A stretch of DNA of 56,811 nucleotides from the IMG/VR virus record IMGVR_UViG_2698536317_000003; one strand, 5' to 3'. The DNA is from a virus. Lineage: Duplodnaviria > Heunggongvirae > Uroviricota > Caudoviricetes. This document shows positions 1-56,811 of the stretch, one piece after another. The first letter of the stretch is position 1. Each line of letters starts with the position of its first letter. The notes beneath the pieces were generated by a model. That model was not told where the DNA came from and did not search any database. It worked only from the letters and a program-made list of their open reading frames with translations. The translations under genes and the position numbers were made by a program.

Positions 1-1446
1 ATGAGTATGTCATCCATACCGTCGTCCTCCCAATCCGGGAAGCTCTATGGCTGGGTCGAAAGAATTGGTAACAAGGTTCCCCATCCTTTTTTGCTCTTTA
101 TCTATTTGATAATCGTACTCATGGTGACGACGGCAATTTTGTCAGCCTTTGGCGTCAGTGCGAAAAACCCGACCGATGGTACGCCGGTGGTGGTGAAAAA
201 CCTGCTCAGTGTGGAAGGATTACACTGGTTTTTACCCAATGTGATTAAAAACTTTAGCGGTTTTGCTCCACTTGGAGCGATCCTGGCGCTGGTTTTAGGT
301 GCCGGTCTGGCGGAGCGCGTCGGCTTACTGCCAGCGCTAATGGTTAAAATGGCATCGCATGTTAATGCCCGCTACGCCAGTTATATGGTGCTGTTTATTG
401 CTTTTTTCAGCCACATTTCTTCCGATGCGGCGTTAGTGATCATGCCACCGATGGGTGCGCTGATTTTTCTGGCGGTGGGCAGGCATCCAGTTGCAGGTTT
501 ACTGGCTGCCATTGCAGGCGTAGGTTGCGGCTTTACGGCTAATTTACTGATTGTCACAACCGACGTGTTGCTGTCGGGGATCAGCACGGAAGCGGCGGCT
601 GCGTTCAATCCGCAAATGCACGTCAGTGTAATTGATAACTGGTATTTTATGGCCAGCTCCGTAGTCGTACTGACGATTGTTGGCGGCCTGATAACCGACA
701 AAATCATCGAGCCACGATTAGGTCAATGGCAGGGAAACAGCGATGAGAAACTGCAGACATTGACCGAAAGTCAGCGTTTTGGTTTACGCATAGCAGGTGT
801 CGTATCGCTACTTTTTATTGCTGCGATCGCGCTGATGGTGATCCCGGAAAACGGGATATTGCGCGATCCGATTAATCACACCGTGATGCCATCACCCTTT
901 ATTAAAGGTATCGTGCCACTGATCATTCTTTTTTTCTTTGTTGTCTCGCTGGCTTATGGCATCGCTACCCGCACAATTCGACGTCAGGCGGATTTACCGC
1001 ATTTAATGATTGAACCGATGAAAGAGATGGCGGGATTTATCGTGATGGTTTTTCCCCTCGCCCAATTTGTCGCCATGTTTAACTGGAGCAACATGGGGAA
1101 ATTCATCGCCGTGGGGCTGACCGATATACTGGAAAGTTCAGGGCTTAGCGGCATACCGGCGTTTGTCGGTCTGGCGTTGCTTTCCTCTTTCTTATGCATG
1201 TTTATTGCCAGCGGTTCCGCAATCTGGTCGATTCTGGCCCCCATTTTCGTACCAATGTTTATGCTACTTGGCTTTCACCCGGCATTTGCGCAAATCCTCT
1301 TTCGTATTGCCGACTCATCCGTATTGCCTTTAGCGCCGGTATCTCCTTTTGTCCCACTGTTTCTTGGATTCCTGCAACGCTACAAACCAGACGCGAAACT
1401 GGGTACTTACTATTCGTTAGTCTTGCCCTATCCGCTTATCTTTTGA
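1..1446 (+). CDS. abgT: AbgT-family transporter (p-aminobenzoyl-glutamate transporter-like); host gene flanking the prophage, C-terminus possibly altered
   Basis: 481-aa polytopic membrane ORF starting at window position 1; sequence recalled as AbgT-like; ORF ends about 150 bp before phage tail-fibre gene. Confidence 0.7.
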   Translation: MSMSSIPSSSQSGKLYGWVERIGNKVPHPFLLFIYLIIVLMVTTAILSAFGVSAKNPTDGTPVVVKNLLSVEGLHWFLPNVIKNFSGFAPLGAILALVLGAGLAERVGLLPALMVKMASHVNARYASYMVLFIAFFSHISSDAALVIMPPMGALIFLAVGRHPVAGLLAAIAGVGCGFTANLLIVTTDVLLSGISTEAAAAFNPQMHVSVIDNWYFMASSVVVLTIVGGLITDKIIEPRLGQWQGNSDEKLQTLTESQRFGLRIAGVVSLLFIAAIALMVIPENGILRDPINHTVMPSPFIKGIVPLIILFFFVVSLAYGIATRTIRRQADLPHLMIEPMKEMAGFIVMVFPLAQFVAMFNWSNMGKFIAVGLTDILESSGLSGIPAFVGLALLSSFLCMFIASGSAIWSILAPIFVPMFMLLGFHPAFAQILFRIADSSVLPLAPVSPFVPLFLGFLQRYKPDAKLGTYYSLVLPYPLIF

Positions 1447-1529
1447 ATGGGTGGGCTGGCGAAAAACTAATTTGTATTCAACATTTTATGTTTTGTTTTG
1501 TTTTTGATTTATCAATTTGGTCACTATTT

Positions 1530-1563
1530 GGTACACAAAAAGAAACGAGGCGTTAGCCTCGTT
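1530..1563 (-). terminator. Rho-independent terminator downstream of tail-fibre gene
   Basis: Hairpin AACGAGGC-GTTA-GCCTCGTT; on the minus strand it is followed by TTTCTTTTTGTGT. Confidence 0.6.
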
Positions 1564-1594
1564 TCGCGCGGCGATGTTCTGCGCACATCACCTC

Positions 1595-4264
1595 TTATTT
1601 TTCGCTTCCAGTCAACTTACTGACAAGCGCTTCAAGTTTTGCGATACGCTCATCCATTGCGGCAATGTTGGCGCGTAGGCTGGCGTTTTCTTCTTCCAGT
1701 TCGGTTACGCGGTTATCCGTTTCGCGTGCCACCTGGACAAGTAAACCAGTCACTGCGGCGTAGTCAACATTGAGGTAACGCGTTTCCTCGCGTAACTCGT
1801 TGCCGTCAGTGGTCGGGCCTTGTAACGCTTCACCGTAATGAGTAAACGATCCCACAGCTTCCGGCAGCGCCTCCATTACCTCCTGAGCGATAACGCCAGC
1901 GTAAGGCAGGCCGTTTTCCTTGAGGGTGTAGGTGTACCCGTTCATTTTACGGATGGCTTCAGTTGCATCACCTATAACCTGAATGTTGTCTTTTAAGTCC
2001 CTGTCTGATGATTGGGTAACTGAAGTGCATGTGATAGTGCCTTCAACCGCAAGCGAAGCAGAACCATCGGAAAGGTATTTAGCCACAAACAGCGTTTTTA
2101 ATGATGTTTGTGCGCCGTTTGTATCAACAGCTTTAACCTCATAATTCAGCGGGGATGATGAACCGCCCCATGTCATCACCTGTACGTTTGCCGAGGTTGT
2201 TGCGTAAGCAATATGCCTTATGAAACGTGTGTGCGTGCTATCAAAGATATAATGACCACTAAAATGATTGTCTGCTGTCCATACGTTTGCTGTATTAAGC
2301 GTTGCAAGTTGACACCAATCCTTGATCGTTCCATTTTCAATACTTCTTGCATAGAATGATGAGTTGCGCCCGGCGAACTGGGTAGCATAGTTACCGCTAA
2401 AGGTGACATGAAAACCACCCGCAACGCCAATACCCAAAGGACCATTGTCACTGCCTGCGATTGGCTTAAACTTCTCTACAGCATCCGTATGCTGATCGTT
2501 CCAGTTTTGCCCAGCATTTATGGCGTAACCTTTAGATGATCCTATCAGGCCATTTATGGTTAGTTTGGGCATCGTCATTGATATGTCTTCACCAACGGTA
2601 ATTCCGTTAAACAGACCTACGCGAGCACCACTACAAATATAATGGAGTCCTTCAGTTGTTGCAGAATAAAAACCACAACGCCCCATTCTGAAATCAAACA
2701 TAACCTGTAGGTTTTTATATGAACCTAAGGGGTCTGATACACCCCACGGTATGATCGTTTCTGTATCTTTACCACTATTATATACAACCTGGGCGGTTGG
2801 TACTTGTACTGTTACGCCCACAGGCAAGCGCATTTTAATAGGGAATGCCCTTGCTTCAACAAAAACAAAGAGCAGGTTATCTTTGTCTTTGCTGGAACTA
2901 CAGATAGAATGTAAAGCGATTTCTTTGTCGGTATAACGATTGTAAAAACCGTAACCTGCATCCTTTCTGTCACTCCACCCGCCAGTCCTTACATACCCGG
3001 AAAAGGTGTTACAGTTCATTGGGTAATTACCAGCGCCAGACACTGTAACAATATCGATCTGATAGCCAGTCAGGTAAGCGTTGTAATAATTGGCGTTTAT
3101 AATTATAGGGTAATACTTACCATCCTCAACGCCTTCCGGGGCTTCGATTGTTATTATCTCGCCACCGCCTATGGTTGGGATATTGATGTTTCTCCTTGTC
3201 TGTTCAGCGTTTTTAGGTTTGAAAGAGTCGGCTATAAATTCGCCGTTTATGTTGAGGCTTGCGTATTTGCTCACGCCGCCAGATCTTAAATGCATTGTTA
3301 ACTGGTCTGGCGAAGAAAGGTTTGTCTCAGGGTATAGTGCACCATAAATACGCTCCGATCCTGATGTACCAACCAAAACGCTGGAAAGAATACCTCCCGC
3401 AACCCATCCGGTAGTCACGTCAGTAGCTCTTTTTAGCGATACATTAGCAAACTGAGGACTATTTGAAGACCCAACGCCCAGGTTTGTTCTTGCTGTGTCT
3501 GCATCTCCTGCACCAGTGCCGCCAGCAGAAATTGAAAGCGGTAGATATTTACTAGCCTCTGAGTCGAAACAACCCCACGTTCCTGAATCATAGACGGTAA
3601 GGAATTTATTTGCGTTTTGAGAGCATACGCGTGTTTCTCCTGTTCTTTGAATAAGCCTGTTTACTTCATCCTTGCGTGCGTGACGTGTCCAGTTCGGTCC
3701 TGATGTTGCGACCCATGTGTAAGTATAAAGTGATCGCGTAGACCAACCGACAAAGACGCCTGCATACGAAGGCGATGTATCCTGCTGACAGATAAATCCA
3801 CTCAAAAATGATTCACCAGCCGCTACGGAAGGAAAACCCTTAGTCGTTTCCTTTATGCGCAAAAAGCCAACGTAAGAAGACGGATTGCCTGATATATCGA
3901 CGCAATCTCGCGGCTCTGGACCCAAGCCAATATTGCTGCCATCTATTGCGCTTGATATTTCATCTTCCTTTTCCTGATAAAAACGAAGCGTTTCTGCTAC
4001 ATCCTGGGCAAGTCCATCAACTGAGATCGAGTCAGAAAGCAGAATGCTAAATTTTGTCCCGGCGGCGATTGCGGGGTTAGCCGCTGGCGTTACTGACAGT
4101 TCAGTACCGCTCTTGATTTCTGTGATGGTAAAGATCTGAATGGGGTTGCTAATAGCAATAAGCGTGCAACCTACACGAATGAGAGAAAGCGGCGCGGAGA
4201 AGTTTGTGCCCGTGCCTTTAACAGTATTGCCGTTGATGGCAATTGTTCCAGTTGTGTAAATCAT
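1595..4264 (-). CDS. Phage tail fibre protein with C-terminal intramolecular-chaperone (peptidase S74-like) domain and terminal coiled coil
   Basis: 889-aa ORF; C-terminal region contains SSDRDLKDNI-type Ser/Lys motif and heptad-rich tail (ELEEENASLRANIAAMDERIAKLEALV) typical of auto-cleaving tail fibre/endosialidase chaperone domains. Confidence 0.65.
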   Translation of the reverse strand: MIYTTGTIAINGNTVKGTGTNFSAPLSLIRVGCTLIAISNPIQIFTITEIKSGTELSVTPAANPAIAAGTKFSILLSDSISVDGLAQDVAETLRFYQEKEDEISSAIDGSNIGLGPEPRDCVDISGNPSSYVGFLRIKETTKGFPSVAAGESFLSGFICQQDTSPSYAGVFVGWSTRSLYTYTWVATSGPNWTRHARKDEVNRLIQRTGETRVCSQNANKFLTVYDSGTWGCFDSEASKYLPLSISAGGTGAGDADTARTNLGVGSSNSPQFANVSLKRATDVTTGWVAGGILSSVLVGTSGSERIYGALYPETNLSSPDQLTMHLRSGGVSKYASLNINGEFIADSFKPKNAEQTRRNINIPTIGGGEIITIEAPEGVEDGKYYPIIINANYYNAYLTGYQIDIVTVSGAGNYPMNCNTFSGYVRTGGWSDRKDAGYGFYNRYTDKEIALHSICSSSKDKDNLLFVFVEARAFPIKMRLPVGVTVQVPTAQVVYNSGKDTETIIPWGVSDPLGSYKNLQVMFDFRMGRCGFYSATTEGLHYICSGARVGLFNGITVGEDISMTMPKLTINGLIGSSKGYAINAGQNWNDQHTDAVEKFKPIAGSDNGPLGIGVAGGFHVTFSGNYATQFAGRNSSFYARSIENGTIKDWCQLATLNTANVWTADNHFSGHYIFDSTHTRFIRHIAYATTSANVQVMTWGGSSSPLNYEVKAVDTNGAQTSLKTLFVAKYLSDGSASLAVEGTITCTSVTQSSDRDLKDNIQVIGDATEAIRKMNGYTYTLKENGLPYAGVIAQEVMEALPEAVGSFTHYGEALQGPTTDGNELREETRYLNVDYAAVTGLLVQVARETDNRVTELEEENASLRANIAAMDERIAKLEALVSKLTGSEK

Positions 4265-5654: not shown

Positions 5655-8600
5655 TTACCATGATCCGGTAATTCGTCCAATTTGGACGCGCAACCTACCG
5701 TTTCCATCCCTAACGGAAATGGTTGTATTTGTTAGTTTCATCGCGCCCTCACCACTTACAGAACCGTAGTTTTCAAATGTGCCTGATTTATCCAGCTTCC
5801 AGCCTGTGCTATTGGAAACATAGTTGTTTGATTGAATGTATGAACCAATTTTTGCATTAGTGATTGACGCGTCTTTAATAAACGCCTCGCGCACATACAT
5901 TGCACCGTTAGACACATAGAAAGGCGTTGTATATGTGCCGTTTGCTGCGGTCATCAATACGAAGCGGTCAACAAGGAAGATACACTGCGATTGAACGTTA
6001 GTACCGTTTCCAGTCAGCCCAAGCGACATACCTGTTGCATACTTCATGCCGTTGTTGTCGGTTGCCAGCTTGATGGAATACGTCGCATCGACATTACCTT
6101 TGAAGTCGGTTAACGCTTTTGACGTCGTTTCTATCGCTGTTGTGTTCCCGTTAACGGTCACTGTTAGCTGATCGATTTTGCTTGATAATGCCTCGTCAGC
6201 CGTTGCCATAGACTGTGACCATTCTGTAATACTTGAGTTTACGGAATCGAAAGACGCTGAGATCTGGACGAATTTTTCAGCGCTTGATGCTTCATGCGTA
6301 GAAAGCGCCGTTGATACCTCAGACACCTTCGAGTTAATCGTACTGGTAAGCGATGAGTTAAGGCTACTTATCGCGTCAGTGCGTGCCTTCGTTTCGTCTG
6401 CAATTGCCTTGTCAATACGGGTCACGTTGCTTGTAACTTTGCCATCAAGGGTTGAAATTGACGCATTCACGCCACTGATGGCTTGTGCTCTGGCGCTGGC
6501 CTCATCAGCAATCGCCTGGTCCAGTCTGCTAACTTCGGATTCAGTGTTGCTTTCGAGGGTGTTAATGCTCGCATTCACTCCACTGATAGCTTCGGTTCTT
6601 GCGCTGGTTTCGTTGGCAATAGCCTGATCCAAACGTTTAACGCTGGCGTCGGTTTTCTTGTCGAGCGCTGAAATGCTTGCGTTAACGTCGCTCACTGCCT
6701 GGCTGCGTGCGCTGGTTTCGTCGGCGATGGCCTGATCAAGGCGGGAAACACTCGCTTCGGTTTTCTTATCAAGATCCGTGATCGATGCTTTTACCACGCT
6801 AACCGCTTCCGCTGTAGCCTTTTTCTCTTCAGCGATAACATTGTCAATACGGTCAATTTGCGCGTTGGTTTCTTTGCGTCCTTTCTTGTATTGGGCAGTA
6901 AGAGTAACACGCGTGTTGGTTTGAGCGATTGAGTTGTTAATCAGAGCAATCGAGGCGTTTTGCAGGCTTGCTTTGGTCTGGCTTATTTCGTCGCTGTTCT
7001 TGTCAACGTTGTTTTCAACCTTACCCAGTTCGGCGCTGATTCCAGATATAGCCTGCGCACGGGCGCTTGACTCGTCAGCAATAGCCTGGTCCAAGCGTTT
7101 GACGCTGGCGTTTGTGTTACTTTCGAGCGTTGTTAAATCAGCTTTGACCTCTGTTATTGCGTCGCTTCTTGCCTGAGTTTCGTCAGATATTGCCTTATCG
7201 AGTCTGCTCACGCTGGCGTCGGTTTTGCTTTCAAGATTGCTTATTGAGGCATTAACGCCGCTGATTGCCTGCGCACGGGCGCTTGATTCGTCGGCAATTG
7301 CTTGATCAAGACGGTTCACGCTGGCGTCAGTTTTCTTGTCAAGATCAGCGATCGATGCGTTCACGTTATTAATTGCTTCTGCGCGGGCGCTTGATTCGTC
7401 TGCCACTGCGCGTTCCACGCTGGAGATCTGACCCTTAAGGTTGGAATCCATCGTGTTCATTTCTGCCGTGATGGTTTTCAGCGATTCAGCCGTGGCCCGC
7501 TTCTCTTCGGCAATAACGTTGTCGATGCTGTCAATCTGCGCGTTTGTTTCTGATTGCCATTTCTTGTACTGTGCAGTGAGCGTAACCCGCGTGTTGGTCT
7601 GCGCGAGAGAGTTATTAATCAGCGCCAAAGATGCGTTTTGCAGGCTTGCTTTTGCTTGCGCCAGTTCGCTGTCGATTCTTTCGCTGGATACCTCTAGCGA
7701 GTCAATCCTTACCTCATGTTGCCCAATACCATCGGTGTTTTCACCAACCTTTTTATAAAGATCTTCCGTCTCTTTTTTCAGCGTGTCAGTGTCAGCTTTT
7801 ATTTCACCTGTTTCTGTGATTAAGCTGTCAGTGTCAGTCCTCAATTCGTCAGTGATGTTTGTCAGGTTGTCAGTTGCAGTTTTTAGGTTGTCAGTAGCGT
7901 TTTTAAGGTCATTTGTGGCGCTTTCGATAAGGTCGGCACGGTCGCCAAGATCTTTAATGTCGCCAATCATGTCCTTGAACTGTTCTGACTCCATGACATC
8001 CTTCATCACGTAGTCGCTGATTTCGTCGAAGTTTTCAGTCGGTTTTCCTGATGCCTCAACGAAGTCTGACACACCGAAAGCGTTACGCGTGCGCACATAA
8101 ACGTAATATTTATGGCCCGTGTTCATGCCGCCAAAAGTCCATTGGTAGCCTCGCCCGGTGAATTGCGCCAAAGTTGTTACTTTTGACGGGTCAGTGATCT
8201 GATTTTCACCTGAGTAGTAAAACTCATATGCTGTATCAGTTGTCAGGGTTGTTTTGCTGATCGGATACACTGTTGCCTGGAAAACGCCAGGAACCCAATT
8301 AACACCAATCGGGGCGGCTGGCGCACCAATGACCAGATCCACAATACTTTCCGCACCCTTCATGCCAGTGTCATTACGCCCGCGAATACCAAGCGTGTAG
8401 CTGCCAGCGTCGAGGCCATAAAAATCATAGCGGTAGTTCGTGGTTTCATAAGTTGCCACTACACGCCCATCGGCGTTATATACGCGAATTTCAAAGGTCA
8501 GGCGATGCGTTGTTGTCTGTGTTTCCCACGTTGCGCGACATTGAACAGTTTCAGAACCAACATTTAACACCTTCAGGTTTTCGATGTTCGGCACGCGGAA

Positions 8601-10439
8601 GTGATTAAGCGTGTCGTTGTTTACCTCAAAGATTGCGCCTTCATCGACTACAGCCTGTTTGTGAGGATCGTGCTGTGCAGCCTCAATGGTGTACACGCTG
8701 TTGTTTTCGGTTTCCGCTACGCTGGTAATTCGACACAGAACGGGTTTTGCAGATTCAGTCGATACGGCAAATACGGTTCCGTTACGAATCCATGCGGGCG
8801 CTGCCGCAAGGGTAATATTGTTTCCGTTAACTCCAGTGATCTGATGTTTTTTAAACTTGCCGTCGCTGTCCAGTAAGCTGATAGTGTCACCAGTCGCCAC
8901 CAGGTCAGAATCAACCTTGTCTACAGTTATCACCTTCCCGTTATTCGCCACGACGCGACCGCCTAAACGAGCGCCAGCGCGGTTATTGTCGAGTATCTCG
9001 ATAATATCCCCTGGCGTAAAGTGAATCGCGTCACGCGCCATTTTAAACGTGAATTTTGACGGCTCGCGTTTTGCTGTTTCTATCAGCCACTTGCCCGCGC
9101 GGTATGCTTGCCCGCGTGATGTGCACCCGAACGCCTCTAACGTGGTTTCGTTGTAACCATCACGGGCGATCAGTTCATCGTCTGCTACATACTCTTTTGA
9201 TTGCTCCCATCCGTTTTCCGGGTCAGTCCATGATACGATCACGGCGTTGTAGCATTCTGCGCGGGCGATACTTGAACGAGTAAACGCGCCATCAACGACA
9301 TTTGCATTTGTAATGGTGGCGATCGGGTCTAGTGGTGCATCAATCATCACGGTAAGGCGTTGCCCGTCCCATAACGCGATACCCCTGAACATCCCGGCGA
9401 TATTGTCCAGTAAGTCGCGGGCGCTCATTTGCTCTGTGATGTAAGCGTTAAGCGTCATGCGAGGCTCAAGGCCGCCGTAGCCATCATCAACCAACTGGTC
9501 GCAGTATTGAGAAAGCGTATATAATGCGCCGTCGTCAACGTCAATATAACCAGCGTGACGAGCAAGGCCGAAACGCTCGTTTTTAACCAGATAGCGGAAG
9601 ATCCATGCTGGGTTATTGGTGTACGCCTGTTTGAAGCCGCCAAGCCACAAACCGGAATAAGTGCGCTTTTCCGGGTCGTAGTTATCAGGAATATCAACAA
9701 TCAGCCCGCGAAGGTGATAGGTGCGGGTAGGCGTGTCAGCGTACTGATCATGGTCAATTACCGCGCCAGCTACAGCGGTGTGAGGATAAGACAAATTATC
9801 GTCGATTATTTCGCTGTAGCTACTCCATCGCGTATCATTCTGCAACAGATCGCTTGTGCTATCAGCGGTTACACGGCGAACGCGAATATCAAACGGTTTT
9901 TCATCTGGTGCATTGATAATATGCGCTTCAAGATATTCTCCGCTGATCTTACCTGGGCCTATAGTAACGTCTTTAACAAGCGTCCACGTAGAAGAAGACG
10001 AAGGCTTCACGTCAATCATCATCATAACCGATGTGTTATGTTGATTGCTTTGCTCGTCAGATTGTACAAGTGAATCGACGCCGATATTCAGGCGAACGCG
10101 GTTTACGTTAGGATCGGAAACGGTCCTGATTATTGGTGTATCGTGTTTAACCTGTGCGTTAACAATAACGGTTGATTCAATGGCGTTAAAACCGTTAATC
10201 GGTGATTGATCTATCGTACCATTGCGCCACGCTACGCTAATACCGGGGATGCTGGTATTGCCGTTCGCGTCAGTTACAGGGGTGTCATTAAGCATTACGC
10301 TGTTTAATGGCGCATTGGTATTAACAGGACCATAAATCGGACCTTCTGAAATAATGTCGAGTACACGATAAAACTGTTTGTGATATAGATTATCGTTAAT
10401 TAAAGTTGGTGTTTTTGCTTTGCCGCCGCCACTACTCAT
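5655..10439 (-). CDS. J: Host specificity / central tail fibre protein, lambda J-like, with long internal coiled-coil repeat region
   Basis: 1594-aa ORF downstream of I/K/L homologues; N-terminal region J-like; central tandem peptide repeats (RLDQAIADESSARAQAISGVNASI...). Confidence 0.85.
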   Translation of the reverse strand: MSSGGGKAKTPTLINDNLYHKQFYRVLDIISEGPIYGPVNTNAPLNSVMLNDTPVTDANGNTSIPGISVAWRNGTIDQSPINGFNAIESTVIVNAQVKHDTPIIRTVSDPNVNRVRLNIGVDSLVQSDEQSNQHNTSVMMMIDVKPSSSSTWTLVKDVTIGPGKISGEYLEAHIINAPDEKPFDIRVRRVTADSTSDLLQNDTRWSSYSEIIDDNLSYPHTAVAGAVIDHDQYADTPTRTYHLRGLIVDIPDNYDPEKRTYSGLWLGGFKQAYTNNPAWIFRYLVKNERFGLARHAGYIDVDDGALYTLSQYCDQLVDDGYGGLEPRMTLNAYITEQMSARDLLDNIAGMFRGIALWDGQRLTVMIDAPLDPIATITNANVVDGAFTRSSIARAECYNAVIVSWTDPENGWEQSKEYVADDELIARDGYNETTLEAFGCTSRGQAYRAGKWLIETAKREPSKFTFKMARDAIHFTPGDIIEILDNNRAGARLGGRVVANNGKVITVDKVDSDLVATGDTISLLDSDGKFKKHQITGVNGNNITLAAAPAWIRNGTVFAVSTESAKPVLCRITSVAETENNSVYTIEAAQHDPHKQAVVDEGAIFEVNNDTLNHFRVPNIENLKVLNVGSETVQCRATWETQTTTHRLTFEIRVYNADGRVVATYETTNYRYDFYGLDAGSYTLGIRGRNDTGMKGAESIVDLVIGAPAAPIGVNWVPGVFQATVYPISKTTLTTDTAYEFYYSGENQITDPSKVTTLAQFTGRGYQWTFGGMNTGHKYYVYVRTRNAFGVSDFVEASGKPTENFDEISDYVMKDVMESEQFKDMIGDIKDLGDRADLIESATNDLKNATDNLKTATDNLTNITDELRTDTDSLITETGEIKADTDTLKKETEDLYKKVGENTDGIGQHEVRIDSLEVSSERIDSELAQAKASLQNASLALINNSLAQTNTRVTLTAQYKKWQSETNAQIDSIDNVIAEEKRATAESLKTITAEMNTMDSNLKGQISSVERAVADESSARAEAINNVNASIADLDKKTDASVNRLDQAIADESSARAQAISGVNASISNLESKTDASVSRLDKAISDETQARSDAITEVKADLTTLESNTNASVKRLDQAIADESSARAQAISGISAELGKVENNVDKNSDEISQTKASLQNASIALINNSIAQTNTRVTLTAQYKKGRKETNAQIDRIDNVIAEEKKATAEAVSVVKASITDLDKKTEASVSRLDQAIADETSARSQAVSDVNASISALDKKTDASVKRLDQAIANETSARTEAISGVNASINTLESNTESEVSRLDQAIADEASARAQAISGVNASISTLDGKVTSNVTRIDKAIADETKARTDAISSLNSSLTSTINSKVSEVSTALSTHEASSAEKFVQISASFDSVNSSITEWSQSMATADEALSSKIDQLTVTVNGNTTAIETTSKALTDFKGNVDATYSIKLATDNNGMKYATGMSLGLTGNGTNVQSQCIFLVDRFVLMTAANGTYTTPFYVSNGAMYVREAFIKDASITNAKIGSYIQSNNYVSNSTGWKLDKSGTFENYGSVSGEGAMKLTNTTISVRDGNGRLRVQIGRITGSW
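6290..7700. repeat. Tandem in-frame coding repeats inside J-like gene (short units nested in a longer duplication)
   Basis: Repeated DNA blocks such as gcgcttgattcgtcggcaattgc...; protein blocks ASLQNAS(L/I)ALINNS(L/I)AQTNTRVTLTAQYKK occur twice. Confidence 0.7.
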
Positions 10440-32204: not shown

Positions 32205-32405
32205 TCAATCATTTTTGCGCTCCTTAATGGCTCGCATGATGTTAATACGCATAGCGTCACTGAATGCGTATATCGTAATGAAAGGCCAGAAGACTAGCTC
32301 GAACCAAATAATGCCGTCACTATCAACAGCTTTCTGAAAAGCGCCCATTAAAATGACACCAGCCAGGTAAATTATAACTACCGCAACAATAATGCATTCA
32401 ATCAT
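32205..32405 (-). CDS. Small membrane protein (MIECIIVAVVIIYLAGVILMGAF...), full-length copy
   Basis: Starts inside 227-bp duplication copy 1 and extends into unique sequence. Confidence 0.4.
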   Translation of the reverse strand: MIECIIVAVVIIYLAGVILMGAFQKAVDSDGIIWFELVFWPFITIYAFSDAMRINIMRAIKERKND

Positions 32406-32529
32406 CTTCACCCCCAAGATCATGATAAATATCGTTAGGGTCTTCACCATGTTCCTCGCAAAAACGCTCAAATAGCGCCCAATTTTCAGAAAGAAACATG
32501 ATTAATAAATTTTTATACCACTCTTCCAT
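32398..32529 (-). CDS. Acidic small protein MEEWYKN...GGEDD (43 aa), copy 1
   Basis: GAGGA RBS; identical copy at 32625-32756. Confidence 0.4.
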   Translation of the reverse strand: MEEWYKNLLIMFLSENWALFERFCEEHGEDPNDIYHDLGGEDD

Positions 32530-32539
32530 TTAATCATCC

Positions 32540-32632
32540 TCAGTCACTATCAACAGCTTTCTGAAAAGCGCCCATTAAAATGACACCAGCCAGGTAAATT
32601 ATAACTACCGCAACAATAATGCATTCAATCAT
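32540..32632 (-). CDS. Truncated small membrane peptide (30 aa) created by the duplication junction
   Basis: Same N-terminus as 32205-32405 ORF, stop created at repeat junction. Confidence 0.3.
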   Translation of the reverse strand: MIECIIVAVVIIYLAGVILMGAFQKAVDSD

Positions 32633-32756
32633 CTTCACCCCCAAGATCATGATAAATATCGTTAGGGTCTTCACCATGTTCCTCGCAAAAACGCTCAAAT
32701 AGCGCCCAATTTTCAGAAAGAAACATGATTAATAAATTTTTATACCACTCTTCCAT
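32625..32756 (-). CDS. Acidic small protein MEEWYKN...GGEDD (43 aa), copy 2
   Basis: Identical to copy 1; start abuts stop of upstream ORF. Confidence 0.4.
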   Translation of the reverse strand: MEEWYKNLLIMFLSENWALFERFCEEHGEDPNDIYHDLGGEDD

Positions 32757-33011
32757 TTAATCATCCTCATCGTCTTCATGTTCAGCCAGGAACTCATCAA
32801 CCACGCGGCAAGTCACTGGCGGGATGTATTCGAAATCATCAGAATCAAGATCAAGCGTCCGGCTGTCGCCGTCATCGTCCAGCGTATTCATCCCTAACTC
32901 ACCGAAAGGGCCATACCCAATATGGCCCAGGTATTCGCATCCAGTAGTAAAGCCAGGGTATTCGCCTTTGCACCAGATCTTGTATAGCTTACTTGATGCG
33001 CTCAATTTCAA
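32757..33011 (-). CDS. Hypothetical protein (84 aa, acidic C-terminus)
   Basis: ORF in small-gene block. Confidence 0.35.
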   Translation of the reverse strand: MKLSASSKLYKIWCKGEYPGFTTGCEYLGHIGYGPFGELGMNTLDDDGDSRTLDLDSDDFEYIPPVTCRVVDEFLAEHEDDEDD

Positions 33012-55436: not shown

Positions 55437-55654
55437 TGGATAAGATCGGGACAATACTTATTAACCGTGAGCAAGTGCAAAAAATGTTAGGCGGGCTTAG
55501 CAAGTCCGCCTTTTTTAAGCTCGTTAAAAAATGGAAAGAAGCGGGAACTCCTTTCCCTGAACCTGTAAAGGGGATGCCAGCATTAAAGCGCGGGGGATCT
55601 CTTTACCGTTATCAGGACGTTATTTCATTTTGTAAATCGATGGGCTTCATGTAG
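55436..55654 (+). CDS. Excisionase-like / small DNA-binding protein
   Basis: 72-aa ORF adjacent to and converging on the integrase gene. Confidence 0.45.
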   Translation: MDKIGTILINREQVQKMLGGLSKSAFFKLVKKWKEAGTPFPEPVKGMPALKRGGSLYRYQDVISFCKSMGFM

Positions 55655-56811
55655 TAATCAGCCAGTTTATTCATCGCCTCGATTTGTTCCCTCACGTAAT
55701 CATATTGATCATAGATAGCCATCATCCCCGCCAGTTTATGACCCAAAACCTTTTCGGCTACGTGCGGCGCAACGCCAAGCGCTGAAAGGTTTGTCCTTAC
55801 AGTGCGGCGTAGATCGTGACACGACCACGGCTCGCCGCCCATCCTTAGCATCAAATCCCTTGCGGCTGTTTTCGGCACGCTCCTGTCTACCGCTTCATCC
55901 CTTCCAGAAAGCACGGGAACGAAGATAAAATTAAAGCCGTGCAAATCCATAGCCTCACGCAATAAATCAACGCTAACGGCAGATAAACCGCGTTTAAACT
56001 CATTTCTGTTCTTACTCAATGCACCCGGCACGGTCCACACACAATTATCAAGATCAAAATGCTCGCGTTTTGCGTTTGTTAGCTCGCTTGTTCTGCATCC
56101 GGTGAATATAATCAGCTTCATCAATATCTGATTTAGCCGCGCCATTTTTGAGCTATCTATAATGCTGATCAGATGGTGAATCTCTTGTATTGATAAAACG
56201 CGCTTCCTTTGCGCCGGGTTTTTGCCAACGTCTTTCACGCGTAGCAATGATATGTCGTCACGCTCCACGCGGCGGCGGCGCATGGCATATTTTATAACCG
56301 CCTTCATCCTGTTTAAGACTATCCCGGCCTGAACGGGCGCGCCACCATTAGCTACCTTTCTAAAAATTCCCTCCCACATTATGGCGTCCATATCATCAAC
56401 AATATAGCTACCGCATGGTTTGACAATATGCTTGCTTAACATCGCTTCGACTTGCTTATGGTTGACCATGTTTCTTGCCTGCGGTGATTCCATATATTCC
56501 CTGACAATATCTTCAACGGTCGCCCGTGTCGTAACGCGGGAAAGGTGCATTCTTTTTACGATCGATGGATCTCGCCCTGAGTTTAATATTTCCTTATGTT
56601 CCGCCACCGCCGCGCGGGCTTCTTTGAGCGTTATTTCTCCGTAAGTGCCAATCTTCATCCGTCGCGGCTTGCCGTTGAATCGGTAGCGATACTGGAAAGA
56701 TATAACGCCGTGCGGGCTTATCCTGGCAGACAATCCGCCCGCGTCCGGGACTTCTTCCGGGCCGTCATATGGCTTGCCGTGGATGTTTCGTAATTTGGTA
56801 TCTGTAAGCAT
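55612..56811 (-). CDS. Tyrosine integrase, P4-type
   Basis: 399-aa ORF with arm-binding N-terminus (MLTDTKLRN...ISFQYRYRFNGK) and C-terminal catalytic domain; 5-prime end at window edge. Confidence 0.9.
   Translation of the reverse strand: MLTDTKLRNIHGKPYDGPEEVPDAGGLSARISPHGVISFQYRYRFNGKPRRMKIGTYGEITLKEARAAVAEHKEILNSGRDPSIVKRMHLSRVTTRATVEDIVREYMESPQARNMVNHKQVEAMLSKHIVKPCGSYIVDDMDAIMWEGIFRKVANGGAPVQAGIVLNRMKAVIKYAMRRRRVERDDISLLRVKDVGKNPAQRKRVLSIQEIHHLISIIDSSKMARLNQILMKLIIFTGCRTSELTNAKREHFDLDNCVWTVPGALSKNRNEFKRGLSAVSVDLLREAMDLHGFNFIFVPVLSGRDEAVDRSVPKTAARDLMLRMGGEPWSCHDLRRTVRTNLSALGVAPHVAEKVLGHKLAGMMAIYDQYDYVREQIEAMNKLADYYMKPIDLQNEITS

Follow-up and report, generated by a model that had tools for sequence, protein, structure and literature searches.

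Genes and features at the left end of the window

The window analysed here is a 56,811-nucleotide (nt) stretch of DNA, the IMG/VR virus record IMGVR_UViG_2698536317_000003. It opens within abgT, a host gene for a p-aminobenzoyl-glutamate transporter, and closes with the integrase gene of a phage of the class Caudoviricetes. This report concerns the boundary between host and phage DNA near the left edge. Positions 1429-1594 very probably represent the left attachment junction (attL) of a 55.5-kb prophage of the mEpimmI group that was integrated by its own integrase. The features that define this boundary are as follows.

1-1446, plus strand: abgT, truncated p-aminobenzoyl-glutamate transporter gene, 481 of 508 codons (open reading frame (ORF) list, Pfam, megablast, PGAP)
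1429-1444, unstranded: attachment (att) core TATCCGCTTATCTTTT, 16 bp (identical in attL, attR, attB and attP)
1444-1446, plus strand: stop codon TGA made at the junction, T from the core and GA from the phage (sequence comparison)
1445-1541, unstranded: P' arm of attL, A+T-rich phage DNA (collinear with attP of MagusPhagus, L013, L016 and mEp010)
1534-1565, minus strand: tail-fibre gene terminator, rho-independent, with a hairpin at 1542-1565 and a T tract (hairpin search, folding)
1595-4264, minus strand: side tail-fibre gene, 889 aa, with a C-terminal Peptidase_S74 chaperone domain (Pfam, PHROG tail-fibre families)
55612-56811, minus strand: tyrosine integrase gene, 399 aa, reading away from attR, its ATG being the last three bases of the window (Pfam)

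The host side was delimited by a megablast comparison of positions 1-2200 with 5426 complete Escherichia coli genomes. A match to abgT is found in 4926 of them, and the alignment ends at base 1444 in all of the unoccupied ones listed. Bases 1-1444 are host DNA, with 99-99.9% identity to the abgT genes of thousands of E. coli genomes. Strain SRY149 (L001) provided the reference for the unoccupied bacterial site (attB), where abgT is followed after 10 bp by ogt, fnr and uspE. A three-way alignment is identical through ...CCGCTTATCTTTT and diverges at the next base. The junction at 1444/1445 corresponds to base 1444 of the 1527 bp of abgT, in its 3'-terminal region. The end of homology with unoccupied chromosomes at this base agrees with a first-pass annotation, made from the sequence alone, that had put the left prophage boundary inside the 3' end of the transporter gene.

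The last phage gene before attL encodes the 889-aa tail fibre, which lies beside a 481-aa AbgT in nine public contigs. A spacer of 148 bp separates the two genes, matching the roughly 150 bp, with a terminator between, that had been described in the first pass. The minus-strand hairpin at 1542-1565 has a 10-bp stem with six G-C pairs and is followed by TTTTTGTGT. Folding of the 3' end of the fibre gene yields -30.4 kcal/mol (z = -4.3; none of 200 shuffles was as stable), and the terminator is annotated as T19 in mEp010. The spacer is more than a terminator, since positions 1445-1541 are the P' arm of the phage. The G+C content over 1401-1600 is 39.5%. Rfam and tRNA scans around the junction returned nothing relevant, so the target is not a tRNA or RNA gene.

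Attachment sites and recombination

The sequence of the right junction (attR) was obtained from Logan assembly contig L012, which equals the last 4200 bases of the window at 4199 positions. An exact-protein look-up with the integrase recovered lysogen contigs carrying attR (L012, L014, L015 and L017) and 53-55-kb contigs carrying the phage site, attP, with tail fibre and integrase adjacent (L013 and L016). The same core, TATCCGCTTATCTTTT, is present in attL (the window), attB (L001), attR (L012, L014, L015, L017, L005 and L006) and attP (L007, L013, L016 and MagusPhagus). It occurs once in the window and comprises abgT codons 477-481 plus one base. The first-pass annotation had expected it within 1447-1594; it lies inside the ORF, and the prediction was off by 3-18 bp. 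The expectation of a matching repeat beyond the integrase, outside the window, proved correct on the predicted right side, both in the near-identical assembly and in 13 of the 5426 complete genomes, which carry the attR junction. The attR core falls at window-equivalent 56958-56973, about 147-162 bp past the integrase ATG.

The order of elements differs among the sites in the manner of reciprocal products. In L012, a P arm of 146 bp separates the integrase ATG from the core, after which come the last 83 bp of abgT and then ogt. In strains RM9245, 09-00049 and 127, about 145 bp lie between an integrase orthologue and a 3' fragment of abgT, beyond which ogt-fnr-uspE follow. In the attP sites of the isolated phage MagusPhagus and of L013 and L016, the core lies between P' and P, with the fibre gene and its terminator beyond P' and int beyond P. 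Together, attL and attR hold all 1527 bp of abgT, no host DNA is lost and the arms are reciprocally recombined, as is characteristic of conservative integration. The core-to-core distance between attL and attR is 55,529 bp, and free phage genomes measure 53-54.7 kb.

These arrangements point to one pathway. The phage attP and the host attB, which share the core TATCCGCTTATCTTTT, very probably underwent conservative site-specific recombination catalysed by the arm-binding tyrosine integrase of the phage. Integration divides abgT into a 1444-bp 5' part, found in the window, and a 3' part of 16 + 83 bp beside ogt, past the right edge. The first two phage bases finish a TGA codon, such that AbgT ends at F481 with no substitute C terminus. 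Beyond position 56811, the expected sequence is CAT-A-AATTTGGTCACTATTTGGTACACA, about 120 bp, TATCCGCTTATCTTTT-TGGTGGTATGGCTG, the abgT stop codon and ogt.

Natural variation in the core helps to narrow the point of exchange to one further feature.

1435-1444, unstranded: putative strand-exchange segment CTTATCTTTT (variant-core comparison)

A variant core, TACCTACTTATCTTTT, is found in the attR site of RM9245 and the attP site of mEp010, and the attL site of RM9245 keeps the host TATCCG. This distribution argues for exchange to the right of core position 6, within the invariant CTTATCTTTT. Strand exchange therefore most likely takes place within the right-hand 10 bp of the core. For the boundary as a whole, the practical value lies in exact coordinates: the core occupies 1429-1444, phage DNA starts at 1445, and attR is found some 150 bp beyond the window.

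Truncation of AbgT

The window ORF at 1-1446 (plus strand) encodes 481 aa and covers profile positions 1-476 of 502 in the Pfam family ABG_transport. Intact abgT is 1527 bp and encodes 508 aa in SRY149, in K-12-type genomes and in others. Because identity with attB ends at 1444 and the intact gene encodes 508 aa, the native protein is 27 residues longer than the product of the window. The first pass had considered a native length beyond 481 aa, and intact orthologues do not share the C terminus seen here. Where the junction creates its stop codon, the intact gene reads TTT TTG GTG. The truncated protein ends at F481 and gains no phage-encoded residues; it lacks residues 482-508 (LVVWLLMLLAWYLVGLPIGPGIYPRLS).

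The missing segment was aligned with the C-terminal hydrophobic helix of MtrF (4R1I) and YdaH (4R0C), two AbgT-family transporters of solved structure. By inference from this alignment, the second half of the last transmembrane helix of AbgT would be lost, and the truncated protein is probably inactive until the prophage is excised. For the lysogen RM9245, whose junction is the same, the PGAP annotation of abgT reads 'incomplete; missing C-terminus'. The exact 481-aa protein is listed in 458 blocks of a large assembly collection and, in the places read, always adjoins phage tail genes of various types. The exact junction coordinates allow abgT in the window to be annotated as a prophage-interrupted pseudogene rather than a short allele.

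Overlap with the ogt promoter

The entire ogt promoter, which is NarL-dependent (Squire 2009; Ruanto 2020), lies within the 3' end of abgT. Its elements were marked by Ruanto et al. 2020 (PMC7419079) as NarL I, TACTTACTATTCGTTA, centred at -77.5; NarL II, TATCTTTTTGGTGGTA, centred at -44.5; and the extended -10 element TGGTATCTT. Mutation of either NarL site abolished nitrate induction of ogt (PMC7419079). The published promoter sequences match attB exactly, and a scan of attB and attR with the 7-2-7 NarL pattern placed the two best attB matches exactly at -77.5 and -44.5. One of these sites is stranded in the window.

1404-1419, plus strand: NarL I site TACTTACTATTCGTTA of the ogt promoter, centre -77.5, left at attL (Ruanto et al. 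2020, supplementary Fig. S3, primer ogt101; 7-2-7 scan)

NarL II starts at 1437 and is centred exactly at the 1444/1445 junction. Its left half-site and spacer, TATCTTT-T, occupy 1437-1444, inside the att core; at attR the region continues at L012 2831-2846. At attR, only the -44.5 site is left, and no 7-2-7 match scoring at least 9/14 is present between -50 and -110. Integration leaves NarL I at attL, and ogt, its core promoter and NarL II come to lie at attR, about 55 kb away. Since both NarL sites are needed and NarL I is lost from the ogt side, integration is predicted to uncouple ogt from NarL, and induction of the gene by nitrate and NarL should be abolished in lysogens.

These observations raise the possibility, which we hold as tentative and somewhat short of an even chance, that lysogeny acts as a reversible regulatory lesion of DNA repair. 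Crossover would occur on a NarL II half-site and P-arm DNA would replace NarL I, with AbgT truncated by the same event. Ogt is an O6-alkylguanine alkyltransferase, and its nitrate induction would be lost. If this proposal is correct, lysogens would be more exposed to alkylation mutagenesis derived from nitrosation during nitrate respiration in the gut, and the wild-type arrangement would return on excision. The single 16-bp target is part of both a coding sequence and a well-dissected promoter, so that one insertion is predicted both to knock out a transporter and to cut a DNA-repair gene off from its nitrate signal.

The overlap of the att core with NarL II appears to be new. The text of the mEpimmI paper (PMC11893012) contains no occurrence of ogt, NarL, arm-type or excisionase, and it does not describe the AbgT truncation or the arm repeats. 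In the searchable literature, no publication was found that combines ogt, abgT and integrase.

The integrase and candidate arm sites

The integrase belongs to PHROG 1 (E = 2e-65) and matches three Pfam domains above their cut-offs: PF13356 (Arm-DNA-bind_3; 70.6 bits), PF22022 (Phage_int_M; 29.5) and PF00589 (Phage_integrase; 63). Its catalytic signature, assigned by motif inspection without structural alignment, consists of R240 (TGCR), H332-x-x-R335 (HDLRR), H358 (LGH) and Y367, nine residues past H358. The protein resembles the heterobivalent integrases of the lambda/P4 type in having arm-binding, core-binding and catalytic domains with R-HxxR-H-Y residues. The attachment site also resembles theirs in its short identical core flanked by arms with repeated elements, and P4-like elements share the placement of attP upstream of an int gene that reads away from it. 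The window phage differs from these systems in that its target is a protein gene and promoter, not a tRNA or an intergenic site, in that no substitute gene end is supplied and in that no consensus site for integration host factor (IHF) was found.

A comparison of repeats across the two arms yielded a further element in the P' arm.

1514-1537, plus strand: candidate arm-type integrase binding element, 24 bp, AATTTGGTCACTATTTGGTACACA (repeat comparison across arms)

This element consists of two tandem TTTGGT(A)CAC units and occurs once in the window, where none is expected. A second copy, outside the window, abuts the integrase ATG in the P arm of attR and attP. The two attP copies are spaced 231 bp apart and make up a direct repeat of 27 nt. 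A near-identical element (GTGTACCAAATnGnGACCAAA) is present in both arms of mEp021 despite the different core of that phage. The N-terminal 90 aa of the two integrases are 63% identical, compared with 45% for the remainder and 49% overall. Because the element and the N-terminal domain are conserved in mEp021 while the core and the rest of the integrase differ, the AATTTGGTCACTATTTGGTACACA repeats fit candidate arm sites that would be read by a conserved arm-binding domain as core specificity diverged. This 24-bp candidate arm-type repeat appears to be new.

Other sequences in the arms also recur. The P arm (L012 2855-3000; L013 2862-2953), outside the window, has a family of 29-nt repeats rich in CACGAT(A/G), with some five motifs of this type between the core and the integrase start. 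These repeats and motifs may be candidate sites for an excision or directionality factor; no excisionase is described for the mEpimmI group. The first 35 bp or so of the P' arm (window 1445-1480) come in two unrelated subtypes among phages that have one integrase type. The first, GAATGGGTrGrCTGrCGAAAAACT, is found in the window, mEp010, L019, L021 and L022. The second, GAATrGATAACTTAATGAAAAATTC, is found in MagusPhagus, RM9245, L013, L016, L018 and L023 (window compared with L002, L013, L016, L018 and L023). In this subtype the core is flanked by a 7-bp inverted repeat consisting of GTTATCC and GGATAAC.

The integrase ATG (window 56800-56811; L012 2976-3003) directly follows the 24-bp arm element, and a Shine-Dalgarno sequence cannot be recognised there; mEp021 has AGGTG at this place. 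PHANOTATE starts int 36 nt farther upstream in mEp010 and MagusPhagus. Either position may be the true start of the integrase, and Int may regulate its own gene.

Phage group and distribution

The phage is a temperate siphovirus that looks intact; it belongs to the mEpimmI (mEp021-like) group and has a 'type II' integrase. Two window segments of about 24.7 kb align over 62-88% of their length, at 87-91% nucleotide identity, with mEp515, mEp044, mEp010, mEp554, mEp021, mEp013 and MagusPhagus; the same segments yielded nothing beyond local matches to other phage groups. For two further traits of the group, an immunity group I repressor and Nus-dependent, N-like antitermination with an extra nut site, what was seen is nucleotide similarity across the early region. 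Integrase identities (tblastn, 100% of the length) are 92.7%, 92.0% and 92.0% for mEp010, mEp013 and mEp044, respectively, and 97.5% for MagusPhagus, compared with 49-50% for the type I integrases of mEp021, mEp515 and mEp554.

Type II phages of this group are reported to insert at the 3'-terminal region of abgT (Front Microbiol 2025, PMC11893012). The attachment site is published, and the kind of boundary described here is already known and routine. The lysogens named in that study are 09-0049, UMNK88, RM9245, GN05505, GN04592, E21845, 190, 127 and MLI107 (PMC11893012), and the searches made here independently recovered these strains. The window prophage is like mEp010, mEp013 and mEp044 in integrase type, genome architecture and abgT 3' insertion, and differs from them in representing another lysogen, with a tail-fibre allele not shared with them. 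It shares with mEp021, the archetype, which has a type Ia integrase and an attB site in ydaM/dgcM, an attP layout of fibre or tail terminator, arm element, core, arm element and int. The two differ in the core and in the target gene, which for mEp021 lies about 7 kb away. The att motif and group of mEp021 are given as Ib in the Discussion and Table 2 of PMC11893012, though its integrase is type Ia.

The uninterrupted site is present in 4209 of the 5426 complete E. coli genomes. An attL site with the fibre type of the window occurs in seven, and the best attL match among all of the genomes is 95.8%; the genome that the window comes from is not one of them. Up to about 1190 genomes match the attB probe only partly. 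Most of the partial matches sampled carry a deletion of abgR-abgA-abgB-abgT with its right endpoint at window-equivalent 1379-1382, which leaves a 146-bp abgT stump (for example, in 2013C-4830, L003 4001-4149). Matches of 66 bp to abgT were considered as att remnants and rejected, as they are the 3' stump of this common abgR-abgT deletion. The deletion strains keep the complete ogt promoter and the attB core and should be competent for integration. Retention of the 146-bp remnant fits selection on the embedded ogt promoter.

Weighing of alternative readings

Several points weigh against the assignment of 1429-1594 to the attL site of an mEpimmI prophage, or against parts of the account built on it. 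The window contains attL alone, and attR lies outside it and was read from a near-identical assembly and from relatives. The abgT attachment site was inferred bioinformatically in PMC11893012, where verification by polymerase chain reaction covers only the ydaM site of mEp021. No match to the IHF consensus WATCAANNNNTTR was found in attP. Core position 6, which is G or A in some attL sites, was dropped as a crossover marker because it is a natural host polymorphism. Some activity could remain in the truncated AbgT, and ogt could be expressed from an undetected promoter in the phage arm. Integrase binding, cleavage positions and phenotypes are predictions from sequence.

Among the competing explanations, the one that survives best, though still improbable, is that the prophage has decayed into a fixed remnant and that its junction is no longer an active att site. 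A perfect 227-bp tandem duplication in the window (described below) could be damage. The core-to-core distance of 55,529 bp, however, is close to the 53-54.7 kb of free phages, and the arms, core and catalytic residues are intact. Moreover, the identical integrase is found in contigs of 53-55 kb whose attP arrangement marks them as circular or free phage.

Many integrases that target the 3' ends of genes restore the end they displace. Phages 21 and e14, for example, bring their own version of the icd 3' end, so that the enzyme remains active. The att core described here is likewise located in the final codons of a host ORF, and 10 of 18 bases agree positionally after it, a weak similarity. It is nonetheless very unlikely that the phage supplies a replacement 3' end and leaves AbgT functional, as with icd or with the tRNA genes used by P4-like elements. 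An in-frame TGA directly follows the core, and the final 26 positions of the Pfam profile are missing from the match. When the P' arm was aligned locally with the 83 bp that are lost, the score was 7, compared with a shuffle mean of 8.2, so there is no detectable homology and the phage brings no replacement gene end. The second P' subtype (GAATGGATAACTT) shares still less. The first-pass suggestion that the insertion had replaced the C terminus fails on the same evidence, and, unlike icd in the case of phages 21 and e14, the abgT ORF is simply cut short with its 3' end unrestored.

A natural end of abgT near 481 aa, with the prophage inserted in an intergenic spacer and the core within 1447-1594, would suit an A+T-rich segment that lies between host and phage genes. 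This explanation is highly improbable and is already refuted by the alignments of attB, attL, attR and attP. The intact gene encodes 508 aa in thousands of genomes, host homology ends at 1444 and 1445-1594 is collinear throughout with the genomes of free phages. From 1447-1594, only the 24-mer recurs at attR, on the phage side of the core and 121 bp away from it. Hardly any credence attaches to a target-site duplication left by a transposing (Mu-like) phage or a transposable element, because, although direct repeats do flank the element, the 16 bp are already present between fibre and int in free phage DNA (MagusPhagus, mEp010, L013 and L016), the element encodes a tyrosine integrase with no transposase beside either end, and independent lysogens whose tail-fibre modules differ all have the insertion at one site.

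Other features of the prophage

Two features elsewhere in the window are worth recording. A 227-bp unit is duplicated in tandem with 100% identity at 32316-32769, so that a 43-aa ORF is present twice, as is part of an 88-aa membrane-like ORF (minus strand). The unit is single-copy in mEp010, where the interval measures 672 bp compared with 901 bp here, and the duplication could be recent or an assembly artefact. The central J-like tail-fibre protein, encoded at 5655-10439, is unusually long at 1594 aa. It carries an array of coiled-coil-like repeats of about 30 residues (RLDQAIADESSARAQAISGVNASI...) ahead of its C-terminal receptor-binding part.

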